Below the pieces are notes generated by a model, which was not told where the DNA came from, ran no database searches, and saw nothing but the letters and a program-made list of their open reading frames with translations. A program made the translations under genes and the position numbers. Positions 35,526 to 56,724 of a stretch of DNA of 64,000 bases are shown here, piece after piece. The number at the start of each line of letters is the position of its first letter. Position 1 is the stretch's first letter. The DNA is from an uncultured Alphaproteobacteria bacterium (GTDB lineage: Bacteria > Pseudomonadota > Alphaproteobacteria > HIMB59 > GCA-002718135): NCBI GenBank assembly GCA_902591485.1, contig CACJAV010000002.1, positions 55,172-119,171 of the forward strand, written 5' to 3'.

Positions 35526-35526
35526 T

Positions 35527-38765: not shown

Positions 38766-39324
38766 TAGAAATTCAGCAATTATAGAAAAGTATAATACTG
38801 GAAAATATCCGTTTGAAGATAATATTGAAATTATATTTTTTGAAAACTGCAATCTTATAATTCAACAAATTGCTGCATGGCCTGATGAAATATCAAATGT
38901 AGAAAAGTTTTTTTCTGATCAATTAGGGGTTCAAAAAAATATTGATTTTAATAGAGGAAAAATTCTAAACAACAATTCACTATGGAGAATGGAACCTTCT
39001 AAATGGTGGTTATTAGGCAGTACAATTAATTTGCCAGAGAATCTCGGAACATCACTTGAGCTATCTCACGCTTTTACCTCAATTACAATTAAAGGTGCAA
39101 AAAGTGACATCTTACTTAATAGACATTTACCTCTTGATCTACGATTAGATAATTTTCCAATACATTCATCAGCAAGTTCAGCAATTCATCATGTAAGTGT
39201 CAAACTCTTTAGACTTAGTGAGAAAGAATTTAGACTCTTTATTCCTAGAGGATTCGCTTTATCTATTTGGGAAATTTTGCTCGAGACAGCTTCTCAATTT
39301 GGTTACGAAATAATAGACAGTTAA
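38758..39324 (+). CDS. soxG: Sarcosine oxidase gamma subunit
   Basis: About 188 aa from ATG 38758, which overlaps the soxA stop (ATGCTTAA). Size and position match SoxG. The start is uncertain; the ORF track gives 38734. Confidence 0.8.
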   Translation: MLNRNSAIIEKYNTGKYPFEDNIEIIFFENCNLIIQQIAAWPDEISNVEKFFSDQLGVQKNIDFNRGKILNNNSLWRMEPSKWWLLGSTINLPENLGTSLELSHAFTSITIKGAKSDILLNRHLPLDLRLDNFPIHSSASSAIHHVSVKLFRLSEKEFRLFIPRGFALSIWEILLETASQFGYEIIDS

Positions 39325-39366
39325 AGTTGTTAGACATTATTCTTTTTCCATACTAAACATTTATTT

Positions 39367-41000: not shown

Positions 41001-42266
41001 ATGTCAAAAATTTCAAGACGTGCTTTTACAGGTCTTGCTGCTGCCTCAGTTGGAACACTTGCATTTCCATCTATTTCACTTGGTGCTTTACCAAAAGTTG
41101 TAGTTATTGGAGGCGGAGCAGGTGGTGCAACCGCAGCAAGATATATTGCGAAAGACTCTGGTGGCGCAGTTCATGTTACACTAGTTGAGGCTTCAAAGCG
41201 ATACTACACATGTTTTTTTTCTAATATTTATTTAGGTGGATTTAGAAATTACGCTTCCATAGGACATAATTACTATGGGCTAGCTGTAAACCAAGGTGTT
41301 AACGTAGTTCATGAGTGGGCTGTATCTGTTGATGCAGTTGCTAGAAAGGTCAAATTAGGTTCTGGGGAACATCTTTCGTATGATAAACTTGTTATTTCAC
41401 CAGGTATTGATCTTAAATATGATAAGATTAATGGATACTCTGCTGCAGTCCAAGATAAAATGCCTCATGCATGGAAGTCTGGTACACAGGTTCAGTTATT
41501 GAGAAATCAGGTTATGAACATGAAACAAGGTGGGACTTTTGTAATGGTTCCTCCACCTAATCCATATAGATGTCCACCTGGACCATATGAAAGAGTGTCT
41601 ATGATCGCTCATCAATTTAAACAATCTAATCCTACAGGAAAAATTGTTATCTTAGACCCTAAACCTAAATTTTCTAAACAAGGTTTATTTGAGGCAGGAT
41701 GGCAAAAACATTATCCAGGCATGATAGAGTGGATTAGTTCAGAGGATCATGGCGGGCTTAAAAATGTAAATGCTTCTACAATGGAGTTTGAAACAGATTT
41801 AGATACATTTAAAGCTGACGCTGCATGTGTTGTTCCCGCTCAAAGAGCTGGTGCTATTGCAATGGCAGCAGGCGTTAACAATGGTGATTGGTGTCCTATT
41901 GTTCCTGCATCTATGCAATCTCAAGCAGATGAAAATATTTATGTTTTAGGTGATGCATCTGTAGCTAAATCAATGCCTAAGTCAGGTTTTTCAGCAAACA
42001 GCCAAGCCAAAGTAGCAGCTAATCATATCAGAGGTGCTTTGACAGGAAGTAAAGTATTTGATGCTCGTTATTCAAATACCTGCTGGTCACTAATTGCTCC
42101 TGATGATGATGTTAAAGTTGGAGCGAGTTATGTTGCTGGTGCAGAAGCTATTGACGTTGAAAGTAAATTTATTTCACAAGCTGATGACACTAGTGAAACA
42201 AGAGCAGCTAACTATCAAGAATCTATAGATTGGTACAATGGTATGACTGCTGATATGTTTTCTTAA
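41001..42266 (+). CDS. Flavocytochrome c sulfide dehydrogenase flavoprotein subunit (FccB/SoxF-like)
   Basis: 421 aa with the Tat signal SRRAFTGLAAA and the FAD motif VVVIGGGAGGATAARY. It contains YRCPPGPYER, typical of FccB, and has a strong SD (GGGAGG). Confidence 0.88.
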   Translation: MSKISRRAFTGLAAASVGTLAFPSISLGALPKVVVIGGGAGGATAARYIAKDSGGAVHVTLVEASKRYYTCFFSNIYLGGFRNYASIGHNYYGLAVNQGVNVVHEWAVSVDAVARKVKLGSGEHLSYDKLVISPGIDLKYDKINGYSAAVQDKMPHAWKSGTQVQLLRNQVMNMKQGGTFVMVPPPNPYRCPPGPYERVSMIAHQFKQSNPTGKIVILDPKPKFSKQGLFEAGWQKHYPGMIEWISSEDHGGLKNVNASTMEFETDLDTFKADAACVVPAQRAGAIAMAAGVNNGDWCPIVPASMQSQADENIYVLGDASVAKSMPKSGFSANSQAKVAANHIRGALTGSKVFDARYSNTCWSLIAPDDDVKVGASYVAGAEAIDVESKFISQADDTSETRAANYQESIDWYNGMTADMFS

Positions 42267-42290
42267 AACTTTTAATTAATAGAGACAAAT

Positions 42291-42315
42291 AAAGGCGGCT
42301 ACTAGCCGCCTTTTT
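42291..42315. terminator. Bidirectional intrinsic terminator between fccB-like (+) and sulfur soxB (-)
   Basis: GGCGGC (42294-42299) pairs with GCCGCC (42305-42310) around the loop TACTA. The stem is flanked by AAA and TTTTT, and the T-run overlaps the soxB stop codon. Confidence 0.75.
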
Positions 42316-43999
42316 AAATTCCCTTCACTGTTACTGGATTATTATATTTTGGTTTAATAATTTTTTCATTTGATACATAATTTTCTAACAATTTATAAAT
42401 AGGAGGTCCTTCAACTTCAGGATTTATTGATCCCCAACCTCCAACAGTATATTTTTTTTGCGACTCAATTTTTTCACCATTAGATAATTTTAAATCATTT
42501 ATTCGATTTCCGATTGAGTTCTTAGGCTGGCAAGTATAAGTCATACCTCCAACTCTAACCATATCCCCCCCTTGTTGAAAGAAAGGGTCTGGATTAAATA
42601 TGTTATCACATACGTCTTCTAAAAGATTTTTTATAGTCTCACCACTCATCTCAGTTCTATATACTTCTGGATAATTCATTGAAGTTTGTGAATAAATATC
42701 ATCAATAGTTATCTTTTGACCTGGCAATAAAGTTGTTCCCCATCTAAAACCTGGGCTTAATGAAATTTCTGTATCTCTTTCCTGAATAATTGCGTCACAT
42801 ATAACACTATCCCAAGGTCCACCAAAATTACCTCTTCTGTAAAGTAAAGTTTCAGCTGCTCCGACGACACGGTTACATTCTTCTTCATACGGTTCTCTAA
42901 TTTTATCAATCAATCGCGTCATTTCTGGATCAGGCTGAATTACATCTGAAAAAATCGGTATTAAATTTGATGAGAAATCAACAACTTTGCCATTGTCGAC
43001 TTTTAAGTCAATCCTTCCTAAATATTTACCATGAGATCCAGATGAAAGAAGTAAAGTATTTTTAATCTTAATTGCTCTTGGAATAGCATCATGAGTATGT
43101 CCAGTTAACACAACATCAACATTATCTAGCATAGACGCTAATTTCTGATCTACATCGAACCCATTATGCGATAATAAAACTACTACTTCAGCACCATTCT
43201 TTTTTGCTTTATTTATATTTTTTTGAATGATTTCTGGTCTTATTCCAAAAGACCAACCTTCAACTAAGTACCTTGGATTAGCAATAGGAGTATATGGGAA
43301 GTGTTGTCCTATAACCGCAATTTTAACACCCCCTTTTTCAAAATAAGATGTACTTTCAAAGACAGGTTCATCCCATTCTGTATCAAAAACATTTCCACCA
43401 AGAAATGGAAAATCTATTTTATCAATTAGTTCACTGAGACGATCCTGGCCAAGTGTAAACTCCCAATGACCTACCATAGCGTCTGGCTTTAAGAGGTTCA
43501 TTGCTTCTAACATATCTTCCCCTTGAGTTTTTAAAGAAGTGTATGAACCTTGCCATGTGTCACCACCATCTAATAAAAGTACTTTGTCTTCTCCTCTTTC
43601 AGCCCTGATGTTTTTAATCAAGCTAGCTGTTCTATCTAATCCTCCCAGTTTGCCATACTCTCTAGCTAATGGAATGTAGTCCAGCATAGTATGTGCGTAT
43701 GCAAGTGGTGTGTTGGGCTCAATGCCAAAATAATCTAAAAAAACTTTTCCAACAAGATGAGGAGGAATGCCTTCGTATTTTCCAATGCCAAAATTTTCTG
43801 ATGGTGGTCTAAAAAAAACAGGTTTAAGTTGACCATGTATATCAGTTATATGCAGTAGAGTAATTTGACCTTTTGAGTCAAATTTTAAAAGATCATTTTC
43901 AGAAATTTCTTGTTTAGCGGCAACTGCGCTCCAACTTTTCCCCCCAATCAACATTGCTGTAATTGTAGCTAATTGAAGAAATTCTCGCCTTGATTGCAT
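42314..43999 (-). CDS. soxB: Sulfur-oxidation SoxB (thiosulfohydrolase, 5'-nucleotidase/metallophosphoesterase family)
   Basis: 561 aa with the Tat signal SRREFLQLA and metallophosphoesterase motifs (HITDIHG, GGDTWQG, GHWEF, LSHNG, GHTHD). Confidence 0.9.
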   Translation of the reverse strand: MQSRREFLQLATITAMLIGGKSWSAVAAKQEISENDLLKFDSKGQITLLHITDIHGQLKPVFFRPPSENFGIGKYEGIPPHLVGKVFLDYFGIEPNTPLAYAHTMLDYIPLAREYGKLGGLDRTASLIKNIRAERGEDKVLLLDGGDTWQGSYTSLKTQGEDMLEAMNLLKPDAMVGHWEFTLGQDRLSELIDKIDFPFLGGNVFDTEWDEPVFESTSYFEKGGVKIAVIGQHFPYTPIANPRYLVEGWSFGIRPEIIQKNINKAKKNGAEVVVLLSHNGFDVDQKLASMLDNVDVVLTGHTHDAIPRAIKIKNTLLLSSGSHGKYLGRIDLKVDNGKVVDFSSNLIPIFSDVIQPDPEMTRLIDKIREPYEEECNRVVGAAETLLYRRGNFGGPWDSVICDAIIQERDTEISLSPGFRWGTTLLPGQKITIDDIYSQTSMNYPEVYRTEMSGETIKNLLEDVCDNIFNPDPFFQQGGDMVRVGGMTYTCQPKNSIGNRINDLKLSNGEKIESQKKYTVGGWGSINPEVEGPPIYKLLENYVSNEKIIKPKYNNPVTVKGI

Positions 44000-44029
44000 T
44001 ATGTTACTCTAAATAATTACCTTTAATAA

Positions 44030-44683
44030 CTATTCGTCTTCTGGAGTTACATCAATATCTCTAGCTTTTCCAATAATATTTGTAGATACTTGACAATTAG
44101 TCATACAAGGATTCCCATGTGTATTCATGATGTCTGGTCTTGGATCAGGTAATAAAAAACCATCTTTATTTGGCATCTCTATTTCACCAATATTTTTATC
44201 TGATAAAACAAAATCTTCTTCGATTATGTCACCCATATATAGAAGATAGGCTACAATTTCATACGTTTCATCATAAGATAGGGATTGAGCTTCACCATAT
44301 GGCATTGCTCTATAAATATAATCAAAGATTGTAGAAGCAAAGGGCCAGTAACTTGTAGTAGTTTTCTCTGGATCATGTGAAGCTAAACTCCCTTCACCTC
44401 CAACGAGAGGAGGCCACCTATCTGCTCCTTCACCAAAATCACCATGGCATGCTGCACATACTTCAGCATATATTTCTTCTCCAGAAAAAGCAGTCCCACT
44501 TCCAATTGGTGCGCCAAACCCATCAGGTCTTACATCAATATCCCATCCTGCCACTTCTTCAGAAGAAGCAATCTGTCCTAAATTGAATTTTCTATCACTA
44601 GCTGTAGCTGTATTTGCTATAAATATTATTAATGAAAAGCCTAGTATGCATCTAACCAAGCCTAACATTATCAACCTTTCCAT
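44030..44683 (-). CDS. soxD: SoxD-like monoheme cytochrome c subunit of sulfane dehydrogenase
   Basis: 217 aa with a signal-like N-terminus and one CAACH motif, directly downstream of soxC and overlapping it. An alternative start is at 44668. Confidence 0.75.
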   Translation of the reverse strand: MERLIMLGLVRCILGFSLIIFIANTATASDRKFNLGQIASSEEVAGWDIDVRPDGFGAPIGSGTAFSGEEIYAEVCAACHGDFGEGADRWPPLVGGEGSLASHDPEKTTTSYWPFASTIFDYIYRAMPYGEAQSLSYDETYEIVAYLLYMGDIIEEDFVLSDKNIGEIEMPNKDGFLLPDPRPDIMNTHGNPCMTNCQVSTNIIGKARDIDVTPEDE

Positions 44684-45941
44684 TTTTTGAGACTAGCCAA
44701 GTTGCAATTGAATTATTATGATAAATTGAATTCACCCCTCTAATTTTTTGAAGCTCACTAATAGTTGGTTGTACGTAATTTGTCTCATCAATTGCTCTTG
44801 ATTGTAGCAGTAATTCCTCACCATTCCATTCAAATGGTAAAGTAAATCTAGTTAATGATTTGCTTAGGACTGGTGAGTGCAGTTGAGCAGTTTTCCAATT
44901 CTTACCACCATCAATGGAAACGTCTACACGTTTAATTTTACCTCTGCCTGACCAAGCAAGACCTCTTAATTGATGCAATCCTTTTGCAAGTATTGGTTTT
45001 TCAGGACTTGGAGAAGTTATGACCGATTTAGCATCCATAACCCATGTAAACATTCTAGCTTTTCCACTTGTTAACAAATCTGTATATTTAGAGGTTTCTT
45101 CTCTAGTCATATAAGGTTTGTCACCAAACTCTAGTCGTCTAATCCATTTTACCCACATATTACCTTCCCAACCAGGAACTACGAGGCGCGCCGGATAACC
45201 TTGTTCAGGTCTTAATGCTTCTCCATTCATTGCCCATGCAATGATACAATCATCTAAGATTTTTTCTATAGGAATAGAACGTGTCATTCCTGATGAATCA
45301 CTACCTTCCGCTAAAACCCACTTGGCTTTTTCTTTTAACCCTGTCTCTAAAAGAAGATCCGATAATTTAACACCTGTGTATTGAACATTATGAACCATTC
45401 CAAATGTGTATTGGCAGCCATTTAATTGCGATCCTCTCCATTCCATTCCACCATTTGCAGCACACTCAAGAAAATAAAATTTGTTTGTTTGAGGAAAGCG
45501 TTTTAAGTCATCAAGAGTAAATATCATTTCTCGATCTACCAAACCATTGATCATTAATCTAAAGTCTTGAGGATTAATAACTGAAACACCTCCATGATGT
45601 CTTTCAAAGCATAGGCCATTTGGTGTTACAATTCCTTCTAGATCTTGTAATGGAGTAAAATTAACTGAAGATTCAGCACTTGCTGTAAGCCACTCAACAT
45701 TTCTTCTTATGACATGTCCCTCAAATTCCGAAGGCATGCCGTAAGGATTTACATCAACACCGTCACCAAGGTATTGAGTCCACTCCGGAAGGTTCGGTGG
45801 CAAGTTTTCAGGATTTGCCTCTTCTGATAAAAGTTTTTTTGGAGCCAAAGAAAAAGCTCCAATACTTGACGCACCAATTATTAGGTCTCTACGATTAATT
45901 TTTTTAAATGTAGATAATTCTTTTTTTTTATTTTTTTTCAC
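44652..45941 (-). CDS. soxC: SoxC sulfane dehydrogenase molybdopterin subunit (sulfite oxidase family)
   Basis: 429 aa with the Tat signal NRRDLIIGAS. Molybdopterin oxidoreductase and dimerisation domains (ECAANGG, PARLVVPGWEGNMWVKW). Confidence 0.9.
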   Translation of the reverse strand: MKKNKKKELSTFKKINRRDLIIGASSIGAFSLAPKKLLSEEANPENLPPNLPEWTQYLGDGVDVNPYGMPSEFEGHVIRRNVEWLTASAESSVNFTPLQDLEGIVTPNGLCFERHHGGVSVINPQDFRLMINGLVDREMIFTLDDLKRFPQTNKFYFLECAANGGMEWRGSQLNGCQYTFGMVHNVQYTGVKLSDLLLETGLKEKAKWVLAEGSDSSGMTRSIPIEKILDDCIIAWAMNGEALRPEQGYPARLVVPGWEGNMWVKWIRRLEFGDKPYMTREETSKYTDLLTSGKARMFTWVMDAKSVITSPSPEKPILAKGLHQLRGLAWSGRGKIKRVDVSIDGGKNWKTAQLHSPVLSKSLTRFTLPFEWNGEELLLQSRAIDETNYVQPTISELQKIRGVNSIYHNNSIATWLVSKNGKVDNVRLG

Positions 45942-45943
45942 AA

Positions 45944-46270
45944 TTAAGAAACAATCATTTCTTTGGAAATTGAATATTTTTCACCATTATCGTCTAGCCA
46001 TTCAAAATCAAATTTACCACTTTCTTTAACCTTATATTGAAAAACAATATATGGGTTAGTTGATATAGAAGGCTCAAGATCCATTTGGAAAATCTCTTTT
46101 CCATTAAATTTAGCACTAAAAGAATTAATTATTTGTCTTGGTATTGTTTGTCCTTCAGGATCTTTCATTCTACCACTATGCATAGGGTGTCTAATTAATG
46201 TTTTAATTTCTACAATCTCATCAATAGATACTTCCTTTGGTACTTTAACTCTTGGTTTAATCGAAGACAT
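45944..46270 (-). CDS. soxZ: SoxZ sulfur carrier complex subunit
   Basis: 108 aa with a SoxZ-like sequence (IKTLIRHPMHSG). It sits between soxY and soxC. Confidence 0.88.
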   Translation of the reverse strand: MSSIKPRVKVPKEVSIDEIVEIKTLIRHPMHSGRMKDPEGQTIPRQIINSFSAKFNGKEIFQMDLEPSISTNPYIVFQYKVKESGKFDFEWLDDNGEKYSISKEMIVS

Positions 46271-46282
46271 AATTACTCCTTA

Positions 46283-46747
46283 TTATCCGCCACATCCACC
46301 AATTGTGACTTTAACTTTTGCATAGGTCATAAAAAATTGCTCATTATTATTTGCAGCTAATAAATAGACATTTTGTGTTTTTGATAAGCGCATTCTTGTT
46401 GTTGCAGAACACGATCCCATTTCTGGTGTGAAAGAGAATTTTGCAACATTTGGTGAAGGGTTTCCGTCTGCTAAAATATACACAGTTTTAATATGATCAG
46501 TTTCAGTCATAGGGCTGTCCATTTCAAAACTAACTTTTACCTGATTACCATTTTCTGCAATTTCAGGTAAGTCTAACCAAATATCACTTTCAGTTGCTCC
46601 CAATCCATTAGTAATTTCATTTATTCTGTCTAAGGCTTTATTAGATTGAGCAAATGATATTGAGGGAAAAACTGCAGTTCCTGTAAAAACAGCAATAAGC
46701 TGTAGGGCATTTCTCCTTGAAATTTTTTTTAATTTTCTTAACTTCAT
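46283..46747 (-). CDS. soxY: SoxY sulfur carrier protein
   Basis: 154 aa with the Tat signal SRRNALQ and the diagnostic C-terminal swinging-arm motif ..VTIGGCGG. Confidence 0.93.
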   Translation of the reverse strand: MKLRKLKKISRRNALQLIAVFTGTAVFPSISFAQSNKALDRINEITNGLGATESDIWLDLPEIAENGNQVKVSFEMDSPMTETDHIKTVYILADGNPSPNVAKFSFTPEMGSCSATTRMRLSKTQNVYLLAANNNEQFFMTYAKVKVTIGGCGG

Positions 46748-46824
46748 TAATATCCTTGTAAAGTATGAATAATGTTAAATTAACTTATTATTTAATATTA
46801 AATTTAATCAAATCAATCAAATAT

Positions 46825-47187
46825 TTAGTCACGACCAAGAATTTCATCTACTTGCCACCAAAACATTTCTGCACTCGAATATCCTGTAATTCTTCCAATT
46901 TCTTCTTTTTCCCTGAAAAAAACAAAAGTTGGTGTAATTTTTGTTTCATAATTATTTGGCTCATTTTTTATTGAGTCTTCATCAAGCTTAATTCTTTCTA
47001 GGGGAAAGTCTTTGGAGATATCTGTCTTGGGATAAATTTCACCAATTTCTTTTTCCCAAATTTGACAGTAAATGCAATAATCTGCAGTTATCATCACTAG
47101 TTTATTATCAGCAAAAGATGATTTAAATGATAATAAAAAAATACCTATTAAAAGTAATTTAAAGTTTAGCAACTTCCTAAACACCAT
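46825..47187 (-). CDS. Periplasmic thioredoxin-fold protein (SoxS/SoxW-like)
   Basis: 120 aa with a signal peptide, a CxxC motif (CIYC) and a cis-Pro loop (TPTF), upstream of soxY. Confidence 0.75.
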   Translation of the reverse strand: MVFRKLLNFKLLLIGIFLLSFKSSFADNKLVMITADYCIYCQIWEKEIGEIYPKTDISKDFPLERIKLDEDSIKNEPNNYETKITPTFVFFREKEEIGRITGYSSAEMFWWQVDEILGRD

Positions 47188-47222
47188 AAGAAAAATCTAA
47201 TTTATTCAGTCTTTCAAAAAAA

Positions 47223-47678
47223 TTATAGTTCTTTTAGTAACTCTTTAAATATTTTTTTTGACTTACCTCCCATTTTTGCTTTTTTAATCTTATCTAAATT
47301 GCTTAGGTCATCTCCAACCACTACTAAACCTATCATGCCCATCGATTTATGAGGAGTGCATACATATAAGTAGATACCGGGAATTTCAAATTTATATTCT
47401 ACGTCTTTATTTATTTTTGATTTGAATTTTTCAACTCCATCTGGCATCTCTACAAATTGAACATTATGTCCTTTGTCTACTGATTTCCAAATAATTGTGT
47501 CACCAATATCTACCTTTGCAACTTTTATAGAATAAACCATTTTTTCTTTACCAAGTTTATTCAACATTTCGATTTCAATAGTCTCTGCATAGCTATAAAA
47601 AGATATTGAGATGAATGAAATAATTAAAAAAATATATTTAAACATATTGAGCCCTTTAATTTTCATATTTTGTAACAA
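47223..47678 (-). CDS. Pseudoazurin-type blue copper protein
   Basis: 151 aa with cupredoxin ligands (..GHNV.. and CTPHKSMGM). The likely true start is ATG at 47645 (MFKYIFLIISF.. signal peptide). Confidence 0.88.
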   Translation of the reverse strand: MLQNMKIKGLNMFKYIFLIISFISISFYSYAETIEIEMLNKLGKEKMVYSIKVAKVDIGDTIIWKSVDKGHNVQFVEMPDGVEKFKSKINKDVEYKFEIPGIYLYVCTPHKSMGMIGLVVVGDDLSNLDKIKKAKMGGKSKKIFKELLKEL

Positions 47679-47844: not shown

Positions 47845-48522
47845 CTAATCATTAGCATCACCTCCACCAGCTCCTTTTTCCCTAGATTCTTCTGATTCAG
47901 GAACGTAGGTTCTAAATGCTAAATCTGAAATATTATTCCAGCTAGACTGCTTGGGACTTAATCCTTTTGATAAATTTAAATTTAATATTTTATAATCTGA
48001 AGTCTTTTCTCCATTCGGTATTTGATATTCATTTGTAGACAGGTTTAAAATAAAATTTGCACAATGATTATTTTTTAAATTATCATGAATGAAAATTTCA
48101 TTTTTATCTAAAACTGCATAAGTTTTATTTTGATTAGTAATTTTTGAAAAAATATTCTTCTTAATACTTCTGTACAAAAGGGGTATCAAAAAAAGAGGAT
48201 CAGAGCAATTTAGTATTTCTATTTTTATTTCATTCTTTTTTGATGTATGAAAATTTAATAGATCAATCAAACCTGGCCCGATCATGAGAATAGATCTTTT
48301 GTTTAAATCAATTTTGCTAATTAATTTATTATTTTCTAGAGCCCCATTAAAATTACCATCAATTTTCTTTTGAATATTAGAAAATAATTGGATACCTTTT
48401 AATTCGAATGCCTCTAACCAACTAATTATAAATGCTGCATCCTCATCAGCTCCATAGGGAAAGCCAAGGCCAGAGAATGCTCTTTTAGCATTTGTGTATA
48501 CTTCATAATACGAGTAACTCAC
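47845..48522 (-). CDS. Hypothetical protein, no signal peptide, acidic/Gly-rich C-terminal tail
   Basis: A 225-aa open frame in stop-rich AT DNA, 3 nt downstream of the 569-aa ORF. The N-terminus (GLGFPYGADEDAAFIISWLE) is vaguely reminiscent of a DUF family, which I could not verify. It ends ..REKGAGGGDAND. Confidence 0.8.
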   Translation of the reverse strand: MSYSYYEVYTNAKRAFSGLGFPYGADEDAAFIISWLEAFELKGIQLFSNIQKKIDGNFNGALENNKLISKIDLNKRSILMIGPGLIDLLNFHTSKKNEIKIEILNCSDPLFLIPLLYRSIKKNIFSKITNQNKTYAVLDKNEIFIHDNLKNNHCANFILNLSTNEYQIPNGEKTSDYKILNLNLSKGLSPKQSSWNNISDLAFRTYVPESEESREKGAGGGDAND

Positions 48523-48525
48523 AAA

Positions 48526-50235
48526 TTAATTATAAGAACTCATCGTTGCAAAACCCCAGCTATCAACATTCTTCGCATTTAAATTTGATAGAAAAGGAGC
48601 ACCTGAAAAAAAACTTACACGAAGCCATCTATCTGATTTTGGGTCATATCTATTTGCTCCAAAAAAAGATAATTTAAATCTTAGCATATTAATAGGTATT
48701 GTTTTTTTTGATAAAATATTATCTTGCACTTCTGCAAAGGGATATTGTTCAAGAGATTGGATTCTTCTAATAATACCTCTGAATTTAGGATTTAGAGCTA
48801 AATATTCAGCAACTGATAAATCAAGATTTTCTTCTTGTATTAACGTGTGAAGTTTTTGAACCATTTTTGCAATACCAAGATGTTGTTCCAGTTCACTACC
48901 CTCTTCATTATATCTCTCACCTAATCTTGGCTCGAGTTTTGCCGCTGAAATATACCAGAATAGGTAATCATTATTTTTGTTAGAAAAATCAACTTTCAAA
49001 GCCCACTGGTAATCTTTTTCAATAATTGCATTTAATTGTTTCAAAGTTTGAGACTCATTAATTCCCATCTCTTCAACATCCGACATATCTTCTGCCAACT
49101 CTTCAGAAATTTCAGGATAAAGTTCTAATAACTGAACTTTAGCAATTTCTTGCGTATCATAATTACATTTATTGGAGGTGAATTTTATTAGATCAATCCA
49201 CTGCAAATCAGTAACTCTCTTCTTTTGAAACTTTTTAATATGACTTATATATTTTTTTAAATCTTCAACTGTTTTTGAATTTTTTGTAATTTGGTATTCA
49301 TCAAACGTTGTAACCTCTTTTAGGTAAAGAAGAGCTTTTTCAAGTAATTCAAAATAAGTATTAAGTTTTTCTATTTCTACATTTTTGTTAACGATATTAT
49401 CTAAAGACTGAGTATACTGTTTCATCCACTTATTAATTAATTTAGGATGTTTAATAATGAAAGGGGCCATCCCTAAACCTGTTGAATTACCAATGCCTAA
49501 GTGTTGTTTGATGTTGTTTTCAAGAGCAATTGCTTTGCTAGGGTTTTGTTTTTTTGCTACATGCTCTACCAACTCAACACTAAATTCTCTTATGATATAA
49601 ACTGCAAGCATTTCAGCTCTAAAAGGTTGGTTAAATTCGGTAACTGCTTTAGTATTTGCAAAGTCTGATAGCCCAAATTTTCCACTACCATAAACAGCTG
49701 TTGTTCTTAAAAGATATCCAACTTTATTTATTTCATTAATATCAGGTTGCTTACCATTAGATAAACAATTGACAACATATTCAAATAAACGAACACTTTT
49801 ATTAGCTCTACTTAAAATTAATTCTTTAGGAGAATTGCGCCCTGACTCTTGAAGCGGTACATTTTTTCTTAATCTATTAAGCTCATCATCATTTAATTTT
49901 CCGTTAATTAAAGAATAGGCAGTATCCCATTTTTCTGCAATTACTCTGTCACTTCTGTCAGAACTATCAAGATGCTGCGAAAAACAAACTAAAGAGTAAA
50001 TATTATTATTTATGTTAATTTCATAAACTGCTGTTCCATAACCTTTATCATCTAGATCAAACTTTGATTTAGAAATTTTCCAATTATCAAACAACAATCT
50101 TCGAAGCATACTTCTAGAAAAGCTTAACCTTGAAGGGTATCTAGAGCCCATTTTATCAAGGGTCATAATTTCTGAAGAATTCATGCTTTGTTGCAACATA
50201 TATAAATATATATAGTGAATTATCACTTTTTTCAC
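48526..50235 (-). CDS. Large hypothetical protein (569 aa), no family recognised
   Basis: A 1.7-kb uninterrupted frame in AT-rich DNA, with no TM segments or signal peptide. It has a Gly-rich segment (LGIGNSTGLGMAPF). The start is uncertain, with in-frame ATGs at 50235, 50199, 50184, 50166 and 50151. Confidence 0.82.
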   Translation of the reverse strand: MKKVIIHYIYLYMLQQSMNSSEIMTLDKMGSRYPSRLSFSRSMLRRLLFDNWKISKSKFDLDDKGYGTAVYEININNNIYSLVCFSQHLDSSDRSDRVIAEKWDTAYSLINGKLNDDELNRLRKNVPLQESGRNSPKELILSRANKSVRLFEYVVNCLSNGKQPDINEINKVGYLLRTTAVYGSGKFGLSDFANTKAVTEFNQPFRAEMLAVYIIREFSVELVEHVAKKQNPSKAIALENNIKQHLGIGNSTGLGMAPFIIKHPKLINKWMKQYTQSLDNIVNKNVEIEKLNTYFELLEKALLYLKEVTTFDEYQITKNSKTVEDLKKYISHIKKFQKKRVTDLQWIDLIKFTSNKCNYDTQEIAKVQLLELYPEISEELAEDMSDVEEMGINESQTLKQLNAIIEKDYQWALKVDFSNKNNDYLFWYISAAKLEPRLGERYNEEGSELEQHLGIAKMVQKLHTLIQEENLDLSVAEYLALNPKFRGIIRRIQSLEQYPFAEVQDNILSKKTIPINMLRFKLSFFGANRYDPKSDRWLRVSFFSGAPFLSNLNAKNVDSWGFATMSSYN

Positions 50236-50255
50236 TATTAGAAGTTAAATAAAAT

Positions 50256-51233
50256 ATGGAAATGGACAATATACTTATCGATGGTCTTGAATATGTGAAT
50301 TGGAATAGAGATTTATTTGAAAAGGCTCATGCTGGAGGAATAACAGCTATTCACGCAACCTTGGTATATTGGGAAGATACTCATGAGTCATTTGAGAAAA
50401 TGAATTATTGGGATGATTTAATTCAATCAAATAGCGATATCTTGATGCATGTAAAAAAATCCTCCGACATACTTCTGGCAAAAGAGTCAAATAAAGTTGG
50501 CATCATATATGGCTTTCAAAATTCAGCACCAATTGCAAATGATATTTTTTTAATAGAAAAATTTTTTTTACGAGGTTTGCGTTTCATGCAACTGACATAC
50601 AACAATCAAACACCCCTAGCAGGTGGATGTTATGAAAAAAATGACTCTGGTGTATCACGTTTTGGTGAAATGGTGATTGAGGAAATGAATCGATTAGGCA
50701 TGATAGTTGATTTAAGTCATGCAGGAAGACAAACATGTTTGGATACTATTAATCTCTCGAAAACACCGGTTGCTATATCTCATGCAAATCCAAATTTTTT
50801 TCATAAATCAATTAGGAATATCGATGATGAAGTGTTGAAAAAGTTAGCAAATAAAAATGGTTTTATTGGCTTAAGCGTCTACCCTTATCATTTAAAAAAT
50901 CATGGAGATTGTAAGTTAGAAGATTTTTGTGACATGATTAAACAGCTTATTAATATGATTGGAGAAGATAATATTGGGATAGGATCTGATTTGTGCGTTA
51001 ATTGGCCAGATGATGTTGTTATGTGGATGCGAAATGGCAAATGGACAAAAAAAATTGATTATGGAGAGTCTCAGGATAAAAATGCAAATTGGCCTAAATC
51101 TACATCATGGTATTCTAAACCAGAAGACTTATCTAGTTTTTTAACTGGAATGATTGCAAATGGAATCAATGAAAAAACTGCAAATAAAATAGCTGGTAAA
51201 AACTGGTTTAATTTTATGACCAATCATTTTTAA
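50256..51233 (+). CDS. M19 (renal/membrane dipeptidase) family homologue with a degenerate metal site
   Basis: 325 aa, collinear with DPEP1-type dipeptidases (RFGEMVIEEMNRLGMIVDLSHAG, ISHANP, GIGSDL). It has LIDGLEY in place of IDGHNDL and GFQNS in place of GVEGG. Confidence 0.85.
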   Translation: MEMDNILIDGLEYVNWNRDLFEKAHAGGITAIHATLVYWEDTHESFEKMNYWDDLIQSNSDILMHVKKSSDILLAKESNKVGIIYGFQNSAPIANDIFLIEKFFLRGLRFMQLTYNNQTPLAGGCYEKNDSGVSRFGEMVIEEMNRLGMIVDLSHAGRQTCLDTINLSKTPVAISHANPNFFHKSIRNIDDEVLKKLANKNGFIGLSVYPYHLKNHGDCKLEDFCDMIKQLINMIGEDNIGIGSDLCVNWPDDVVMWMRNGKWTKKIDYGESQDKNANWPKSTSWYSKPEDLSSFLTGMIANGINEKTANKIAGKNWFNFMTNHF

Positions 51234-52093
51234 GTTTTTCTTGTTACAAACGTTGAAGATGCAAGACTGATTAAGACAATTGCAGTACCAAATAACTGCA
51301 TGGAAGTTAAGGACTCATTAAGAAGTATTACAGCTCCAAATATTCCTGTTATTGGTTCAAGATATAAAAATAAAGCTGTATTCGTTTGACCAATTCTTGG
51401 TATTGCAAGTAATTGAAGAAATAAAGCAATTGCATACGAACAAGAAGGAATTAATAGAATTAAAAATGCATTAAGATTGATGTTGGTGTCTATCTCGTAG
51501 AATAAACTTAAAACAATAAAAAAGAATATTGTGTTAAAAAAATTAATAAAAATATTGATTGGAATAGGGGAAATATTTTTTTTAGACATTGTTTGATTAG
51601 TCACTATCATGATTGCAGCGCCCAATGATGCAATCAAAGCAAAAATAATTCCTTCAAATTTTAAGTCATCAGTTGAGGGACTTAATGCAAGAAATAATCC
51701 AATAAATGTTGTAAAAAATAAAAATTTGATAACATTTTTTATTTTTTCTTTGGTTATAAAAATAGATATCGACAAGACCAAAATTGGATAGGTGCAAAAT
51801 ATTATTATTGTTAAACTAACATTAATATATGTAACTGAAATTAATAATCCTGTGGTTAGCATTATGGAGGCAAGAGTAATCAGTAAAAAATCACGTATAT
51901 TATTTTTATAAATACTGAATAAGTTTTGTTGATTTGGAATTAGGGGAGAGACTATTATTAATGCAACAATATAACGTAAAAAAATAGCAAGGCCTATACC
52001 GGCTCCTAAATTATAAGCAGTTTTTGTAATGGGACCAATTATTCCAAAAAAAACACCAGCAAGTAAAGCAAATATTATGCCCAAAATATTCAT
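51230..52093 (-). CDS. EamA/DMT-family transporter
   Basis: 287 aa with about 10 TM segments arranged as two EamA-like halves. Confidence 0.82.
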   Translation of the reverse strand: MNILGIIFALLAGVFFGIIGPITKTAYNLGAGIGLAIFLRYIVALIIVSPLIPNQQNLFSIYKNNIRDFLLITLASIMLTTGLLISVTYINVSLTIIIFCTYPILVLSISIFITKEKIKNVIKFLFFTTFIGLFLALSPSTDDLKFEGIIFALIASLGAAIMIVTNQTMSKKNISPIPINIFINFFNTIFFFIVLSLFYEIDTNINLNAFLILLIPSCSYAIALFLQLLAIPRIGQTNTALFLYLEPITGIFGAVILLNESLTSMQLFGTAIVLISLASSTFVTRKT

Positions 52094-52168: not shown

Positions 52169-53266
52169 ATGAATTCTGAGTCAGAAAAAAGCTTTGTTAA
52201 ATTTGAAAAGATTGACAAAAGTTACGATGGTGAAGTGCTAGTAGTTAAAAATCTAAATTTAGATATCGCCAAGGGTGAGTTTGTAACAATGCTTGGCCCT
52301 TCTGGTTCCGGTAAAACTACCACACTTATGATGTTAGCAGGATTTGAGACTCCAACGAATGGAGAAATCTTTCTAGATGGAATGCCCATTAGTAAAATCC
52401 CACCATATGAGAGAGAAATTGGAATGGTCTTTCAAAATTATGCTCTATTCCCTCATATGACTGTGCAAGAAAATTTAGCATTTCCACTTGAAGTTAGAAA
52501 ATTATCAAAAGGAGAGACTAAAGAAAAAGTTCAAAAGGCTCTTGATATGGTTGAGCTTGGAGACTTTGGTACTCGTTTTCCTGCGCAGTTATCTGGAGGT
52601 CAACAACAAAGAGTTGCTCTTGCAAGAGCTCTTGTTTTTGAACCAAGGCTTGTTTTAATGGATGAGCCTCTTGGTGCATTAGATAAAAATTTAAGAGAAC
52701 AGATGCAATATGAAATAAAACATATTCATGACAGAATAGGAATTACTGTCGTTTATGTAACACACGATCAAAGTGAAGCTTTAACGATGTCTAATAGAAT
52801 AGCAGTTTTTAACGATGGAGTTGTTCAGCAATTATCAACTCCAGATATATTATATGAAAAACCAGAAAATTCTTTTGTTGCGCAATTTATAGGTGAGAAT
52901 AATAGAATGTCAGGAACAATTAAGAGTATGGAAAATAATTACTGTTCTGTAGAACTTGAAAATGGAGCAGGTACTGTAAAAGCTCTTAAAGTTAATGTAG
53001 GTGGTGTGGGAGAGAAAACTCAACTCTCCGTTAGACCTGAAAGAGTATCATTGGGATCAGATGGAAACGGGGAAAATCTATTTACAGGAAAAGTTGAAGA
53101 ACTAATATATTTAGGTGATCATATTAGGGTTAGATTAGATGTATGTGGAAATAACGAGTTTATTGTTAAAGTACCAAATGAAGGATCTTTTAACTATAAT
53201 GAAGGAGACTCTATAAAACTTAACTGGAATTCTGATGATATAAGGGCCTTAGATCCTGTAAATTAA
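52169..53266 (+). CDS. ABC transporter ATP-binding protein, PotA/spermidine-putrescine type
   Basis: 365 aa with Walker A GPSGSGKTT, signature LSGGQQQRV, Walker B VLMDEPLGALD and a C-terminal TOBE-like domain. Confidence 0.92.
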   Translation: MNSESEKSFVKFEKIDKSYDGEVLVVKNLNLDIAKGEFVTMLGPSGSGKTTTLMMLAGFETPTNGEIFLDGMPISKIPPYEREIGMVFQNYALFPHMTVQENLAFPLEVRKLSKGETKEKVQKALDMVELGDFGTRFPAQLSGGQQQRVALARALVFEPRLVLMDEPLGALDKNLREQMQYEIKHIHDRIGITVVYVTHDQSEALTMSNRIAVFNDGVVQQLSTPDILYEKPENSFVAQFIGENNRMSGTIKSMENNYCSVELENGAGTVKALKVNVGGVGEKTQLSVRPERVSLGSDGNGENLFTGKVEELIYLGDHIRVRLDVCGNNEFIVKVPNEGSFNYNEGDSIKLNWNSDDIRALDPVN

Positions 53267-53381
53267 TATTATTGAAGTTTTCTGCGGTATTTTAGCACTT
53301 TTTTTTATAATTTCATCATGTTATTAGGGAATTATCGATAGACATATAATCTTAAGATTAACCAACGAATAGGAGGAACAT

Positions 53382-54485
53382 ATGTCAAAATTAATTAAAG
53401 CATTCTTGTTTGCTTCACTTTTAGTATCATCTTTTGCTGTTAAAGCAGTAACGGTTGCTTCATGGGGTGGTGCTTACACAGAAAGTCAACAAAAAGCTTA
53501 TGCTGATACTTACTCAGATCCAAGTTCAATTCAATTTGAGAACTATAACGGTGGTCTTGGTGAAGTAAGAGCGCAAGTTGAAAGTGGTAATGTAACTTGG
53601 GACTTAGTAGACGTTCTTCCAAGTGATGCAATCACAGGTTGTGATGAAGGTTTGTTTGAAGACATTTCATCAGAAATCGCTTCTAGTTCTGTTCCAGGAC
53701 CTGACGGTGAGTCAATGTTAGAAGATATGGAAAACAATGGCCTAGAGTATCACTCTGGTTGGGATTGTTGTGTTCCACAAATTTTCTGGACTTACGTAGT
53801 GTTCTATGATCCAGATGCTTTCCCTGGTGATAAGCCAAGCAGCATGGCAGACTTTTTTGACGTGGAAAAATTCCCTGGCAAAAGAGGTATCCATACTTGG
53901 GCAACAGGTATAATTGAAAAAGCAATGGTTGCTGATGGTGTTAAACCAACTGCAGTTCCTACAGTTCTAGCTAACCAAACTGGTGCGCTTGATAGAGCTT
54001 TTGCTAAATTAGATACTATCAAGGATCACGTTGTTTTTTGGTCTTCAGGATCAAAACCACTAGAATTAGTAAAAAGTGGTGAGGTTGTAATGGCTATTGC
54101 ATACAATGGTCGTGTTGGTGCAGCTAACCTAGCTGAAGGTGAAAACTTCGAATATATTTGGGAAGGTCAAGTGTTAGATCAAGAGTATCTATGTCTTACT
54201 ACTGGTGCTCCTAATAGAGATGCTGCTCTTGATTTCATGATGCATGCTTCTTCACCTGAATCTCAAGCTGAACAAGCAAAATATATTACTTATGGACCTA
54301 TGAGAGCTTCTGGTATTCCAATCATTAAAAATAATGAGCCTTGGGGACCAGGTGGTGTAGATATTATGCCTCATATGCCTAATACACCTGAGCGTTTAAA
54401 AGTTTCGATCGTAAGTGATCCACAATGGTGGTCTGATTACGGTGCCGAAATTAACGAACGTTATGCAGCGTGGATGGGTAACTAA
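53382..54485 (+). CDS. Periplasmic solute-binding protein, PotD/PotF-like (family 1)
   Basis: 367 aa with a signal peptide (..SSFAVKA) and the VTVASWGGAY.. start typical of polyamine/opine-type SBPs. The SD is AGGAGG. Confidence 0.85.
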   Translation: MSKLIKAFLFASLLVSSFAVKAVTVASWGGAYTESQQKAYADTYSDPSSIQFENYNGGLGEVRAQVESGNVTWDLVDVLPSDAITGCDEGLFEDISSEIASSSVPGPDGESMLEDMENNGLEYHSGWDCCVPQIFWTYVVFYDPDAFPGDKPSSMADFFDVEKFPGKRGIHTWATGIIEKAMVADGVKPTAVPTVLANQTGALDRAFAKLDTIKDHVVFWSSGSKPLELVKSGEVVMAIAYNGRVGAANLAEGENFEYIWEGQVLDQEYLCLTTGAPNRDAALDFMMHASSPESQAEQAKYITYGPMRASGIPIIKNNEPWGPGGVDIMPHMPNTPERLKVSIVSDPQWWSDYGAEINERYAAWMGN

Positions 54486-54519
54486 GCTTGATTAAGTTAC
54501 AATATTAATTTAACTAAAA

Positions 54520-54544
54520 GGCGAGATTGATTCTCGCCTTTTTT
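54520..54544 (+). terminator. Intrinsic terminator/attenuator after the SBP gene
   Basis: GGCGAGA (54520-54526) pairs with TCTCGCC (54532-54538) around the loop TTGAT, followed by TTTTTT (54539-54544). Confidence 0.75.
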
Positions 54545-55825
54545 AATTGGGAGGTTATTATTTCTACTACACAGCTACTTACAACTGATGGTATTCCACT
54601 TAAGCAAAGTTTAAAAAAAGCTGAAAGAAAGAATAAAATAAGAGCATTCTTTTTAGTCTTTCCTTTGTTGCTTTTTATATTTGTTACTTTTGTAATGCCT
54701 ATTGGTGATATGCTATTAAGAAGTGTAGATGATGCGCAAATCAATACTGTATTTCCAAAAACATTTGAAGAGTACAACAAATGGGATAGAGAAAAAGATA
54801 AGCTTCCACCTGAAGAGGTATACCGAACTCTTTTTGAAGAACTAGCTACTGGAGAGAAAATTCAAATTGGTAGAGCTTTAACTAGAATGAATTATTCTAA
54901 ATCAGGTTGGAAAAGTTTGATTAAAAAAACTTCTAGAGAAATAAAAAAGATGACAAGGAAAGGGATGGTTCCTGAGTCTTATAAAGAGACCCTTATTGAG
55001 ATAAACAAAGATTGGGGTGATCCAACATTTTGGTACTCAATGGCTCAAATGGTAAATAAACAGACACCAATTTATTATTGGAATGCAATTGATAGGACTT
55101 ATGATCAAAATCAAAACGTTATCATGCAGGATGAGAAAAGAAGAATTTATGTTCAAACATGGTTGAAGACATTAAAAGTAAGCGTCTATGTAACTTTCTT
55201 TTGTTTAATATTAGGTTTTCCAGTAGCACACTTATTAGCAAACCTACCTTTACGATATAGTAACCTATTAATGATTTTTGTACTTCTTCCCTTCTGGACA
55301 TCTTTACTAGTTAGGACAACAGCATGGATTGTTATGCTTCAACAAAAAGGAGTAATTAATGGGGTCTTAGTATGGCTCGGTATATTGAGTGATGATGGCA
55401 GACTTCAGATGGTTTATAATGAAACTGGTACTTTAATTGCAATGACGCAGATATTGTTGCCATTTATGATTTTACCTCTTTATAGTGTGATGAAGGTAAT
55501 ACCAAAAAGTCATATGAGAGCAGCTCAAAACTTAGGTGCTAAGCCTGCAATGGCATTTTGGAGAGTATACTTACCGCAAACGATTCCAGGTATGAGTGCT
55601 GGTGGATTACTAGTTTTTGTTTTAGCAATTGGTTATTTTATTACTCCTGAACTAGTGGGTGGAAAAGATGGAAAATTAATTGGTAGTTGGATAGCCTTTC
55701 ATCTTAAAACTACATTGAACTGGGGTTTATGTGCAGCTCTAGGAGCAATACTATTAGCTGTAATGCTCGTATTTTACTGGCTTTATAATAAAATTGTTGG
55801 CATTGATAATATTAAATTAGGATAG
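54527..55825 (+). CDS. ABC transporter permease, PotB-like, with a long hydrophilic insertion after TM1
   Basis: 432 aa in the ORF track. The C-terminal core has an EAA-like loop (AAQNLGAKPAMAFWRVYLP). The start is uncertain because the track's TTG lies inside the terminator hairpin loop. Confidence 0.8.
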   Translation: MILAFFNWEVIISTTQLLTTDGIPLKQSLKKAERKNKIRAFFLVFPLLLFIFVTFVMPIGDMLLRSVDDAQINTVFPKTFEEYNKWDREKDKLPPEEVYRTLFEELATGEKIQIGRALTRMNYSKSGWKSLIKKTSREIKKMTRKGMVPESYKETLIEINKDWGDPTFWYSMAQMVNKQTPIYYWNAIDRTYDQNQNVIMQDEKRRIYVQTWLKTLKVSVYVTFFCLILGFPVAHLLANLPLRYSNLLMIFVLLPFWTSLLVRTTAWIVMLQQKGVINGVLVWLGILSDDGRLQMVYNETGTLIAMTQILLPFMILPLYSVMKVIPKSHMRAAQNLGAKPAMAFWRVYLPQTIPGMSAGGLLVFVLAIGYFITPELVGGKDGKLIGSWIAFHLKTTLNWGLCAALGAILLAVMLVFYWLYNKIVGIDNIKLG

Positions 55826-55827
55826 AT

Positions 55828-56724
55828 ATGGCATTACCGAGTTACGCATCACCTGTTCAAAAAACTTACTATTACTTTTATTTATTTTTTTGTGGAGTTG
55901 TTTTCTTTTTCCTTGTCGCTCCTTTGATTGCAATCGTACCTATTTCATTTAGCGTATCACCTTTCATGGTATTTACAGATGGAATGTTGGCATGGCCGCC
56001 AGATCCTGAAGCTTGGTCATTTAGATGGTATAGAAATATGATTGGAGATTGTAGTGCTGATGTCGTGTCATCTACAGTTCCTTGTTCAAATAAATGGATG
56101 ATAGGAACAGTAAATAGTTTCTTTATTGGAATAGTTGCAACTGTTATTGCAACTGCTCTTGGCACGCTAGCTGCTTTAGGTTTAAGCAGACCTCACATGC
56201 CATTTAAAGGAATAATAATGGCAATTCTGATTTCACCCATGATTGTTCCTTTAATTATAACAGCGGCAGGCATGTTCTTTTTTTATGCTAGAATAAATTT
56301 AGTTTATACTTTCACAGGAGTAATTTTAGCCCATGTAGCTCTAGCTACACCATTTGTAGTAATCACAGTTACTGCAACTTTGGTTGGGTTTGATATGAAT
56401 ATGGTTAAAGCTGCTCAAAGTTTGGGTGCAAGACCTGTTAAAACTTTTTTTAGAGTAATTATGCCATTAATTTTACCGGGTATAATTTCTGGAGCGTTAT
56501 TTGCTTTTATTACTTCTTTTGATGAAGTTGTAATTGTTATGTTTATGGCAAGCTTAGATCAACTTACAATTCCTAAGCAAATGTGGGCTGGAATAAGACA
56601 GGAAATTAGCCCTGTAATTTTATGTATGGCAACGTGTTTGGTAGCACTTTCAATTTTCTTGTTAACTACAGTTGAATTATTAAGAAGACGATCAGAGCGA
56701 TTACGCGGCATTAAACCAAGATAG
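55828..56724 (+). CDS. ABC transporter permease, PotC-like
   Basis: 298 aa with 6 TM segments and an EAA loop (AAQSLGARPVKTFFRVIMP). Confidence 0.88.
   Translation: MALPSYASPVQKTYYYFYLFFCGVVFFFLVAPLIAIVPISFSVSPFMVFTDGMLAWPPDPEAWSFRWYRNMIGDCSADVVSSTVPCSNKWMIGTVNSFFIGIVATVIATALGTLAALGLSRPHMPFKGIIMAILISPMIVPLIITAAGMFFFYARINLVYTFTGVILAHVALATPFVVITVTATLVGFDMNMVKAAQSLGARPVKTFFRVIMPLILPGIISGALFAFITSFDEVVIVMFMASLDQLTIPKQMWAGIRQEISPVILCMATCLVALSIFLLTTVELLRRRSERLRGIKPR

Follow-up and report, generated by a model that had tools for sequence, protein, structure and literature searches.

The 64,000-nucleotide (nt) stretch of contig CACJAV010000002.1 from an uncultured alphaproteobacterium that was analysed here (the window) carries on its minus strand a large gene (48526..50199, 557 amino acids (aa)) and a small gene (47845..48522, 225 aa, GTG start), and the locus raises the question of what the products of this pair do. 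An earlier reading by a model that saw only the letters and open reading frames (ORFs) of the window, referred to below as the sequence-only reading, had described two coupled genes of an undescribed function within a small metabolic module with a neighbouring gene of the peptidase M19 family, and this core claim stands. The large and the small protein are two subunits of one soluble cytoplasmic protein, which are obligately linked and in many lineages fused. The more specific proposal, that they form a new heteromeric enzyme which acts with the M19 hydrolase early in the catabolism of a betaine-class or N-alkyl amino-acid osmolyte, is put forward as having an even chance of being correct.

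The linkage of the two genes was determined in a set of 81 loci, comprising the window and 80 loci on contigs from one genome per species, which were retrieved with a 16-sequence alignment of the large protein and the ORFs of which were clustered. Simple ORF calling gave spurious antisense ORFs in high-GC loci (clusters 20, 23, 24 and 36); these were discounted, and presence or absence was decided by tblastn. A homologue of the small subunit lies directly downstream of the large gene in 80 of the 81 loci, the sole exception being at a contig edge. The two adjacent minus-strand ORFs reported earlier for the window were confirmed, with a 3-nt spacer at the junction TAA-TTT-GTG; the commonest junction among the loci is a 4-nt overlap, which is also present in the annotated records of Phaeobacter inhibens, Sinorhizobium meliloti and Natrinema. 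Among the best 150 of 1258 representatives of the large protein, 43 are 760-960 aa long, and in seven of ten long representatives tested (six at E <1e-3, one at 0.005) DUF3726, the Pfam family of the small protein, was found C-terminal to the large domain; the long proteins are therefore regarded as Rosetta-stone fusions. The model of a natural 802-aa fusion (P0254) has a predicted TM-score (pTM) of 0.92 and thus points to a defined inter-domain arrangement. Adjacency, frequent fusion and the common overlap bear out the operon-like coupling suspected from the sequence alone. Neither protein contains a transmembrane-like (TM-like) segment (maximal Kyte-Doolittle 19-residue means of 1.13 and 1.19) or an obvious N-terminal hydrophobic signal sequence, in agreement with the earlier reading, and, as neither has a stretch hydrophobic enough to span a membrane, a membrane or secreted location of the pair was rejected. 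Both ORFs show clear conservation across their scored relatives (more than 8000 for the large and 919 for the small protein) and are therefore not chance frames.

The longest ORF of the large gene extends to a GTG at 50235, which gives the 569 aa assumed earlier; this length is an over-extension. Among the 120 closest of the matches listed, the homologues are 522-557 aa long, with 557 aa in nearly all of them, and their alignment begins at the ATG at 50199 (MLQQSMNSSE...) and not at GTG 50235, so that the ATG is probably the start and the upstream GTG probably not. A sigma-70-like match, TTAACT-18-GATAAT at 50248..50219 on the minus strand, fits the consensus weakly and would place the transcript start between 50235 and 50199; promoter and terminator scans were uninformative in the AT-rich DNA of the window. 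Homologues of the small protein are 224-225 aa long, in agreement with its GTG start. The GC content of the large gene (30.3%) and the small gene (28.3%), compared with 32.2% for the window, is native to the host, as had been stated before. The closest genomes, with 68-90% identity, are single-cell genomes of uncultured marine Alphaproteobacteria. Bona fide Pelagibacteraceae metagenome-assembled genomes (MAGs) show only about 43% identity, and the host is for this reason termed 'SAR11-like', a term used here without asserting membership.

No described family includes the large protein, and no solved structure shares its fold, as judged from Pfam, NCBIfam, the PDB, the names retrieved and the searchable literature. 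The databases used were Pfam of 2025, NCBIfam of June 2026 and the PDB to 2026. No significant match was found in Pfam-A (best E 0.78), NCBIfam (best E 0.15) or PADLOC, and when 63 diverse members were scanned singly, no Pfam family was matched by more than one of them. Against PDB sequences the best E value was 0.073 with phmmer and 0.018 in a profile search, the latter on a helical stretch. An AlphaFold2 model built from a 63-sequence alignment is of high predicted quality (mean pLDDT 95.6, pTM 0.94), and its comparison with the PDB by Foldseek gave nothing significant (best E 0.12, TM <0.12). The top match was the triphosphate-tunnel enzyme YgiF, which was rejected as insignificant (E 0.12, TM 0.09), as were weak matches to Bet v1/START-like folds. 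All database names retrieved by cluster look-up were 'hypothetical protein'. The absence of a recognisable family, claimed earlier for both proteins, thus holds for the large one with respect to profile, structure and name, and fails for the small one, which matches DUF3726 and is a remote relative of Ldh_2, the family of type-2 malate/lactate dehydrogenases.

An exhaustive HMMER search of 1.84 billion cluster representatives yielded 1258 relatives of the large protein at E <=1e-3 and 364 at E <=1e-30, which gives a family of at least 1258 clusters at 50% identity. The conserved motifs are LGIGN[AS]TGLGMAPF (predicted strand-loop-helix), RTTAVYGNGKFG, DRVIAxxWD, SRANKSxR and EPRLGxR. The Gly-rich segment pointed out earlier is the most conserved of these: it reads LGIGNSTGLGMAPF in the window (residues 234-247 of the 557-aa protein, codons 49459..49500, minus strand). 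About 45 polar or Gly positions are near-invariant, nine of them Arg. No Lys or Cys is invariant across the family; without an invariant Lys, pyridoxal-phosphate (PLP) chemistry is unlikely, and without a Cys motif so is Fe-S chemistry. Two further motif readings were rejected, namely Walker A for AVYGNGKF, in which the final residue is wrong, and Rossmann for the GIGNSTG loop, for which no dinucleotide-fold match appeared.

The gene divergent from the pair (50256..51233, plus strand) encodes an atypical M19 (dipeptidase-like) TIM-barrel hydrolase (PF01244, 236.4 bits, E 5.9e-70) and is the third conserved member of what is here called the cassette. It is present in 72 of the 81 loci, and six of the nine absences concern short contigs with the large gene at the contig start. 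Even where identity has dropped to 25-27%, the linkage is kept, namely on pSymB of S. meliloti and for two metagenomic fused homologues. The assumed module of the pair with the M19 and EamA genes is thus supported for M19, including the cytoplasmic metabolic role shared with this atypical neighbour; the linkage of the EamA-family transporter gene (51230..52093, minus strand) is confined to close SAR11-like relatives. In the synteny comparison across related genomes proposed at the time, the pair and M19 proved to be conserved together, the EamA and sulfur-oxidation genes not.

M19 ligand positions were assigned from those of the human and Streptomyces enzymes and are taken to apply here. In the loci L001-L080, 68 orthologues of the M19-like protein were found. 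Its N-terminus reads IDGLEY, the His-x-Asp that would supply the alpha-site zinc ligands being absent here and in the orthologues, and the position of the bridging Glu is occupied by Gln88 in 63 of 63 aligned orthologues, which makes a binuclear zinc site of the canonical kind unlikely. His155 and His176 (the beta-site His pair), Arg187 and Asp245 are retained. The closest solved relative is the structural-genomics 'amidohydrolase' 2I5G (325 aa, E 6e-60), which also has no HxD motif and which we presume to be PA5396 of Pseudomonas aeruginosa. Compared with peptidase M19 proper (renal dipeptidase/dehydropeptidase I; Sco3058-type), the neighbour thus still has the His pair of the beta site, the Arg that binds carboxylate and the catalytic Asp, whereas the alpha-site His-x-Asp is missing and the bridging Glu has become an invariant Gln.

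The cassette ranges over SAR11-like bacteria, roseobacters, rhizobia, Pseudomonas, Halomonas and Vibrio, and its neighbours are largely genes for transport and catabolism of small nitrogen compounds. In Gammaproteobacteria and roseobacters the operon reads LysR | ALDH-M19-BCCT-large-small-RidA, where ALDH is an aldehyde dehydrogenase. On S. meliloti pSymB (about 25% identity) the order is IclR-large-small-M19-substrate-binding protein-permease-permease-ATPase-class III aminotransferase-ALDH (succinate-semialdehyde dehydrogenase-like)-RidA-RidA, and smb20383 in this operon region carries the annotation of a polyamine transporter. One fused homologue, with 27% identity, adjoins ALDH, a PotD-type binding protein, M19 and a PotA-type ATPase, and another fused homologue adjoins Amidohydro_2, M19, TctC and ALDH. 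A haloarchaeal plasmid (Natrinema) carries a gene like that of dihydrodipicolinate synthase, ALDH, large, small and BCCT, with no M19 detected. OpuAC-type betaine ABC transporters flank the cassette in three loci, and a DoeA-like M24 gene lies in or beside it in 15 loci, inside the operon in three of them (L039, L059 and L071). Further recurrent neighbours are genes for GcvT/DmdA-like proteins, genuine Ldh_2 enzymes, MR/MLE, proline-racemase-family proteins and omega-aminotransferases. The sarcosine oxidase genes soxBDAG adjoin the cassette in SAR11-like loci, in the unrelated Pseudomonadota MAG L031 and in the second of two copies (L081 and L093) on plasmid pPGA1_262 of P. inhibens DSM 17395.

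Both P. inhibens copies (copy 1, PGA1_RS19005-19015; copy 2, PGA1_RS18825-18840) lie near dmd genes, and one adjoins dmdA/B/D/C. Copy 2, which includes BCCT, has as its neighbours soxBDAG, an 806-aa FAD-dependent oxidoreductase, a Rieske oxygenase with a PDR/VanB reductase, ALDH and another dmdD/acyl-CoA dehydrogenase pair; the 806-aa protein is possibly like dimethylglycine dehydrogenase and the Rieske oxygenase/reductase pair possibly GbcAB-like. On Pseudomonas plasmid pMPC6-328K (L091) the cassette is likewise bordered by a Rieske and ALDH pair. The cassette-linked ALDHs are similar to dehydrogenases of 2,5-dioxovalerate, succinate semialdehyde and betaine aldehyde, all with scores below the respective cut-off. 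Cassette-linked RidA proteins keep an Arg-containing P-x-R segment in 20 of 20 sequences (read by eye), the Arg of which we take to be the catalytic one. All 19 cassette-linked BCCT carriers (L021, L038, L043, L046, L048-L054, L058, L060, L062, L063, L070, L073, L075 and L080) have W-F-x-G-Y in TM8, at the position at which glycine-betaine carriers have a W-W-x-x-W box (PMC12093977); this subtype suggests, from its sequence, a distinct substrate specificity.

A PotA/PotD/PotB/PotC-like ABC importer (ATPase, binding protein, two permeases; 52169..56724, plus strand) follows in the window, and a transporter of this type also stands beside the cassette in S. meliloti and beside a distant fused homologue. 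The best PDB relatives of the PotD-like binding protein (53382..54485) are 8JV1-8JV4 ('spermidine/putrescine-binding periplasmic protein', E 1.8e-70), while gamma-aminobutyric acid, mannopine or agropine is the ligand of less closely related proteins; neither a ligand nor a paper was found for 8JV1 in the searchable literature. SAR11_1336, long annotated as polyamine PotD, binds glycine betaine (Kd 2 nM), dimethylsulfoniopropionate (DMSP) and other osmolytes (PMC11485210), so the PotD-type annotation is no argument against an osmolyte substrate.

From these contexts the substrate of the cassette would be a small zwitterionic nitrogen compound, an osmolyte of the betaine, N-alkyl or cyclic imino-acid class. 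A conserved Arg enables M19 enzymes to recognise a free carboxylate, the mammalian M19 enzyme is a dehydropeptidase, and RidA hydrolyses enamines and imines. In the proposed scheme the heteromer and the M19 TIM-barrel hydrolase with its degenerate metal site would constitute a three-gene catabolic cassette. The heteromer, in which no redox-cofactor motif was found, would catalyse an early step such as ring opening, elimination or isomerisation; the M19 enzyme would then cleave an amide in the manner of a dehydropeptidase, RidA would resolve the released enamine or imine to a 2-oxo acid and ammonia, and ALDH would oxidise an aldehyde product to an acid linked to the tricarboxylic acid cycle, an aminotransferase or DAO-type dehydrogenase taking part in some lineages. 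Candidate substrates, in order of priority for testing, would be (hydroxy)ectoine-like cyclic amidines, (hydroxy)proline-betaine-type imino acids, dimethylglycine- or sarcosine-related compounds and DMSP-related compounds. The presence of RidA suggests nitrogen rather than sulfur chemistry.

Several observations weigh against this scheme. The large protein offers no identifiable substrate, cofactor or catalytic motif and hence no positive chemistry, and the dehydropeptidase-RidA logic is an analogy with mammalian M19 and RidA. The window has no RidA gene beside the cassette, and its PotD-like protein, which shares a type of annotation with SAR11_1336, is only a putative orthologue of it. The pair occurs without M19 in distant family members (Natrinema, L086 and L087) and the M19 subfamily without the pair in the dimethylglycine (dgc) operon, so that a strict three-protein complex is not required. 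Neighbour sets also vary by lineage (TctC, NMT1-type ABC, LacI), and different subfamilies may therefore use different substrates. A bolder form of the proposal is tentative and rated below the proposal itself: the heteromer would be a new enzyme fold that carries out an undescribed C-N (or C-S) bond cleavage or ring opening on an abundant marine or rhizosphere osmolyte and, with M19, would provide a missing route into the betaine-dimethylglycine-sarcosine-glycine network in SAR11-like bacteria, roseobacters and rhizobia, and in haloarchaea with the pair alone. There is likewise a substantial chance, though a less than even one, that the chemistry itself is new.

The pair probably marks an undescribed step in the turnover of organic nitrogen in sea and soil. 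Some of the most abundant heterotrophs of the sea have members of its family, as do the model bacteria P. inhibens DSM 17395, S. meliloti, Pseudomonas, Halomonas and Vibrio, and the fixed association with osmolyte importers and methylated-amine genes suggests a quantitatively important dissolved organic nitrogen compound as substrate. Assigning the function would improve the annotation of many marine and soil genomes, could explain the dipeptidase-like gene of the dimethylglycine operon and would give enzymology a new fold and reaction; the cassette is carried by genetically tractable hosts, which makes the question directly testable.

Viewed as a system, the cassette has the appearance of a conventional catabolic operon module. 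Its nearest counterpart is the dimethylglycine operon headed by a dipeptidase gene, from which it differs in the partner enzyme. On the Ralstonia megaplasmid the first gene of the putative operon of this kind encodes an M19 protein 34% identical to the one in the window, followed by V4R, DgcA-like, DgcB-like and electron-transfer flavoprotein (ETF) genes. A dipeptidase gene with no assigned role likewise comes first in PA5396-PA5397-dgcA-dgcB of P. aeruginosa (operon PA5396-PA5399; PMC13492115) and in pepD-hp-dgcAB-fixAB beside BCCT in Vibrio natriegens (PMC12093977). As a further likeness, the dimethylglycine operon lies in a betaine-to-glycine catabolic island with sarcosine oxidase nearby (and BCCT in V. 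natriegens). The partners differ: a V4R protein, the flavin/Fe-S demethylase DgcAB and ETF in the one, and the large and small proteins, with no redox-cofactor motif, in the other. Neither the neighbours of the cassette in the window nor the gene clusters that recur in the 81 loci include V4R, DgcA, DgcB or ETF genes.

This comparison bears on the alternative that the large and small proteins are non-catalytic (activating, scaffolding or substrate-delivering) partners of the M19-like hydrolase, which would compensate for the lost alpha-site ligands, the only chemistry being amide hydrolysis by a three-protein complex. The almost constant co-location of the M19 gene would fit, as would the loss of HxD and the invariant Gln in place of the bridging Glu while the beta-site His pair, Arg and Asp are retained; moreover, the tail of the small protein is flexible and best conserved, with Ser, Arg, a Gly-rich stretch and acidic residues, and is of a kind that could insert into the active site of a partner. 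The pair without M19 in Natrinema, L086 and L087, the other partners (V4R protein and DgcAB-like genes) of the same M19 subfamily in the dimethylglycine operon, and the near-invariant positions of the large protein with their nine Arg, which are typical of a ligand-binding enzyme, argue against this alternative, and it is considered unlikely.

The small protein bears on a second alternative. It was identified as DUF3726 (PF12525; 40.5 bits versus a cut-off of 22.1, residues 4-56), a family which its homologues also carry and on which nothing useful was found in the searchable literature. No other Pfam match was obtained, including to full-length Ldh_2 (PF02615, about 330 aa), and scans of NCBIfam and PADLOC gave none. 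In a profile-profile alignment (hhalign, probability 83.5%), residues 2-128 correspond to positions 5-142 of Ldh_2, with a five-residue deletion exactly at the DG..SHG position, so that the SHG motif which carries the catalytic His is absent from the small protein (a gap in the alignment). When the modelled natural fusion was compared with the PDB by Foldseek, Ldh_2 enzymes made up all of the top approximately 20 matches (probability up to 1.0, E 0.05-1, about 145-160 columns). By profile and model, the small protein thus looks like a truncated, catalytically stripped Ldh_2 fold, a relationship newly noted here. Compared with Ldh_2 enzymes (AllD, YiaK, ComC, DpkA), the likeness covers the N-terminal 125-150 residues or so in profile and fold, and genuine Ldh_2 genes occur in several cassette neighbourhoods, including one in the window (33104..34108) beside soxBDAG; the small subunit differs in having about two-thirds of the length, the SHG deleted, a conserved C-terminal tail of its own and a large protein always paired or fused with it. 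The tail (VPESEESREKGAGGGDAND, codons 47848..47904, minus strand) is its best-conserved segment, with the family motif V[PE]xS[ED]xSRxxGAG(xGxxDND) recognisable in S. meliloti and in the haloarchaeon. The acidic, Gly-containing tail noticed earlier is thus real and, being conserved across the family, not mere flexible filler; it is probably the working part of the small subunit.

The heteromer could accordingly be supposed to have arisen from Ldh_2 as a divergent NAD(P)-linked oxidoreductase of imines or 2-oxo acids (cf. pyrroline-/piperideine-2-carboxylate reductase and N-methyl-amino-acid dehydrogenase), which would convert an N-alkyl amino acid to an imine for hydrolysis by M19 or RidA, the aldehyde passing to ALDH. 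Apart from the alignment of the N-terminal 125 or so residues of Ldh_2 with the small subunit and the structural matches of the fusion model, the recurrence nearby of genuine Ldh_2, DAO-type dehydrogenase, proline-racemase-family, RidA and sarcosine oxidase genes speaks for such an enzyme. The small protein nevertheless represents less than half of the Ldh_2 fold, has no Pfam Ldh_2 match and is deleted at SHG, and the large protein gave no sign of a Rossmann or other dinucleotide fold; this origin, too, appears improbable, and a heteromer acting in an early step on an osmolyte remains the preferred reading.

Among known osmolyte pathways, the ectoine genes DoeABCD/EutDE show the same grammar of M24 ring hydrolase, deacylase, omega-aminotransferase and semialdehyde dehydrogenase as the cassette neighbourhoods, from which they differ in that the M24 protein (39367..40542) scores 464 bits against DoeA (TIGR02993), below the equivalog cut-off of 613, and in that DoeB is missing. 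By its sequence score the M24 protein of the window is a DoeA-like paralogue or creatinase-like enzyme and not assignable to DoeA. The S. meliloti cassette lies apart from the known ectoine locus of this organism. The DMSP cluster dddD-dddT-dddBC-dddR combines LysR, BCCT and aldehyde dehydrogenase, and DddP, an M24 peptidase fold reused as a DMSP lyase, sets a precedent for a peptidase fold turned to the cleavage of an osmolyte. The cassette shares the LysR, BCCT and ALDH grammar, and the P. inhibens copies lie near dmd genes; it differs in having no CoA-transferase or cupin lyase.

In the window the cassette lies in an island of about 40 kb of osmolyte and methylated-amine genes, which runs in the order PLP enzyme, M20, M24, proline-racemase-family protein, OpuA-type ABC transporter, Ldh_2, soxBDAG and DoeA-like M24 and, after an insertion of sulfur-oxidation (Sox) genes, small, large, M19, EamA, PotABCD-like importer, DAO-type dehydrogenase, ALDH and a TRAP system. 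The Sox block (41001..47678) comprises an FCSD-like flavoprotein, SoxB, cytochrome c, a SoxC-like molybdoenzyme, SoxZ, SoxY, a thioredoxin-like protein and pseudoazurin. The gap of 166 nt between the small gene and the pseudoazurin ORF and the common strand, both correctly described earlier, would be compatible with a role of the pair in this block, for instance as an accessory factor. Synteny contradicts this: the small gene has no Sox block behind it at 11 of the 13 closest loci and at every distant one, and many organisms carry the pair among quite other neighbours, so that such a role is very improbable. Among the fetched loci L003 (69% identity) is the only one with which the window shares the block, which is therefore regarded as a lineage-specific insertion outside the cassette; in L072 a pseudoazurin-cluster ORF lies beside the pair on the opposite strand. 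In most related genomes the small gene directly adjoins the M24 and sarcosine oxidase genes, which the Sox block separates from it in the window. That the pair is a mobile, defence or toxin-antitoxin-type two-gene module, as two tightly coupled genes of undescribed function with some copies on plasmids or near insertion sequences might suggest, is hardly credible in view of the absence of a PADLOC match, the sizes of 557 and 225 aa, the stable catabolic operon context across phyla, the native composition and the nature of the plasmid carriers, which are chromids or megaplasmids rich in catabolic genes.

The remaining genes of the island include candidate downstream enzymes for the preferred osmolyte pathway, namely the FAD-dependent D-amino-acid-dehydrogenase-like (DAO-type) oxidoreductase (56731..57966, plus strand) and the aldehyde dehydrogenase (57963..59396, minus strand). 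A second putative osmolyte or imino-acid cluster (24127..34108) encodes a PLP-dependent enzyme, an M20 peptidase, an M24 protein with Creatinase_N and a proline-racemase-family protein, and also holds the OpuA-type glycine-betaine ABC transporter (fused permease, OpuAC binding protein and ATPase) and the gene of the genuine Ldh_2 dehydrogenase. Between this cluster and the Sox block lie soxBDAG and the DoeA-like M24 gene (together 34260..40542, plus strand). The soxG-like ORF, which opens with a TTG at 38734, shares about 30 nt with the end of soxA (38734..38765), and its true start may lie further downstream.

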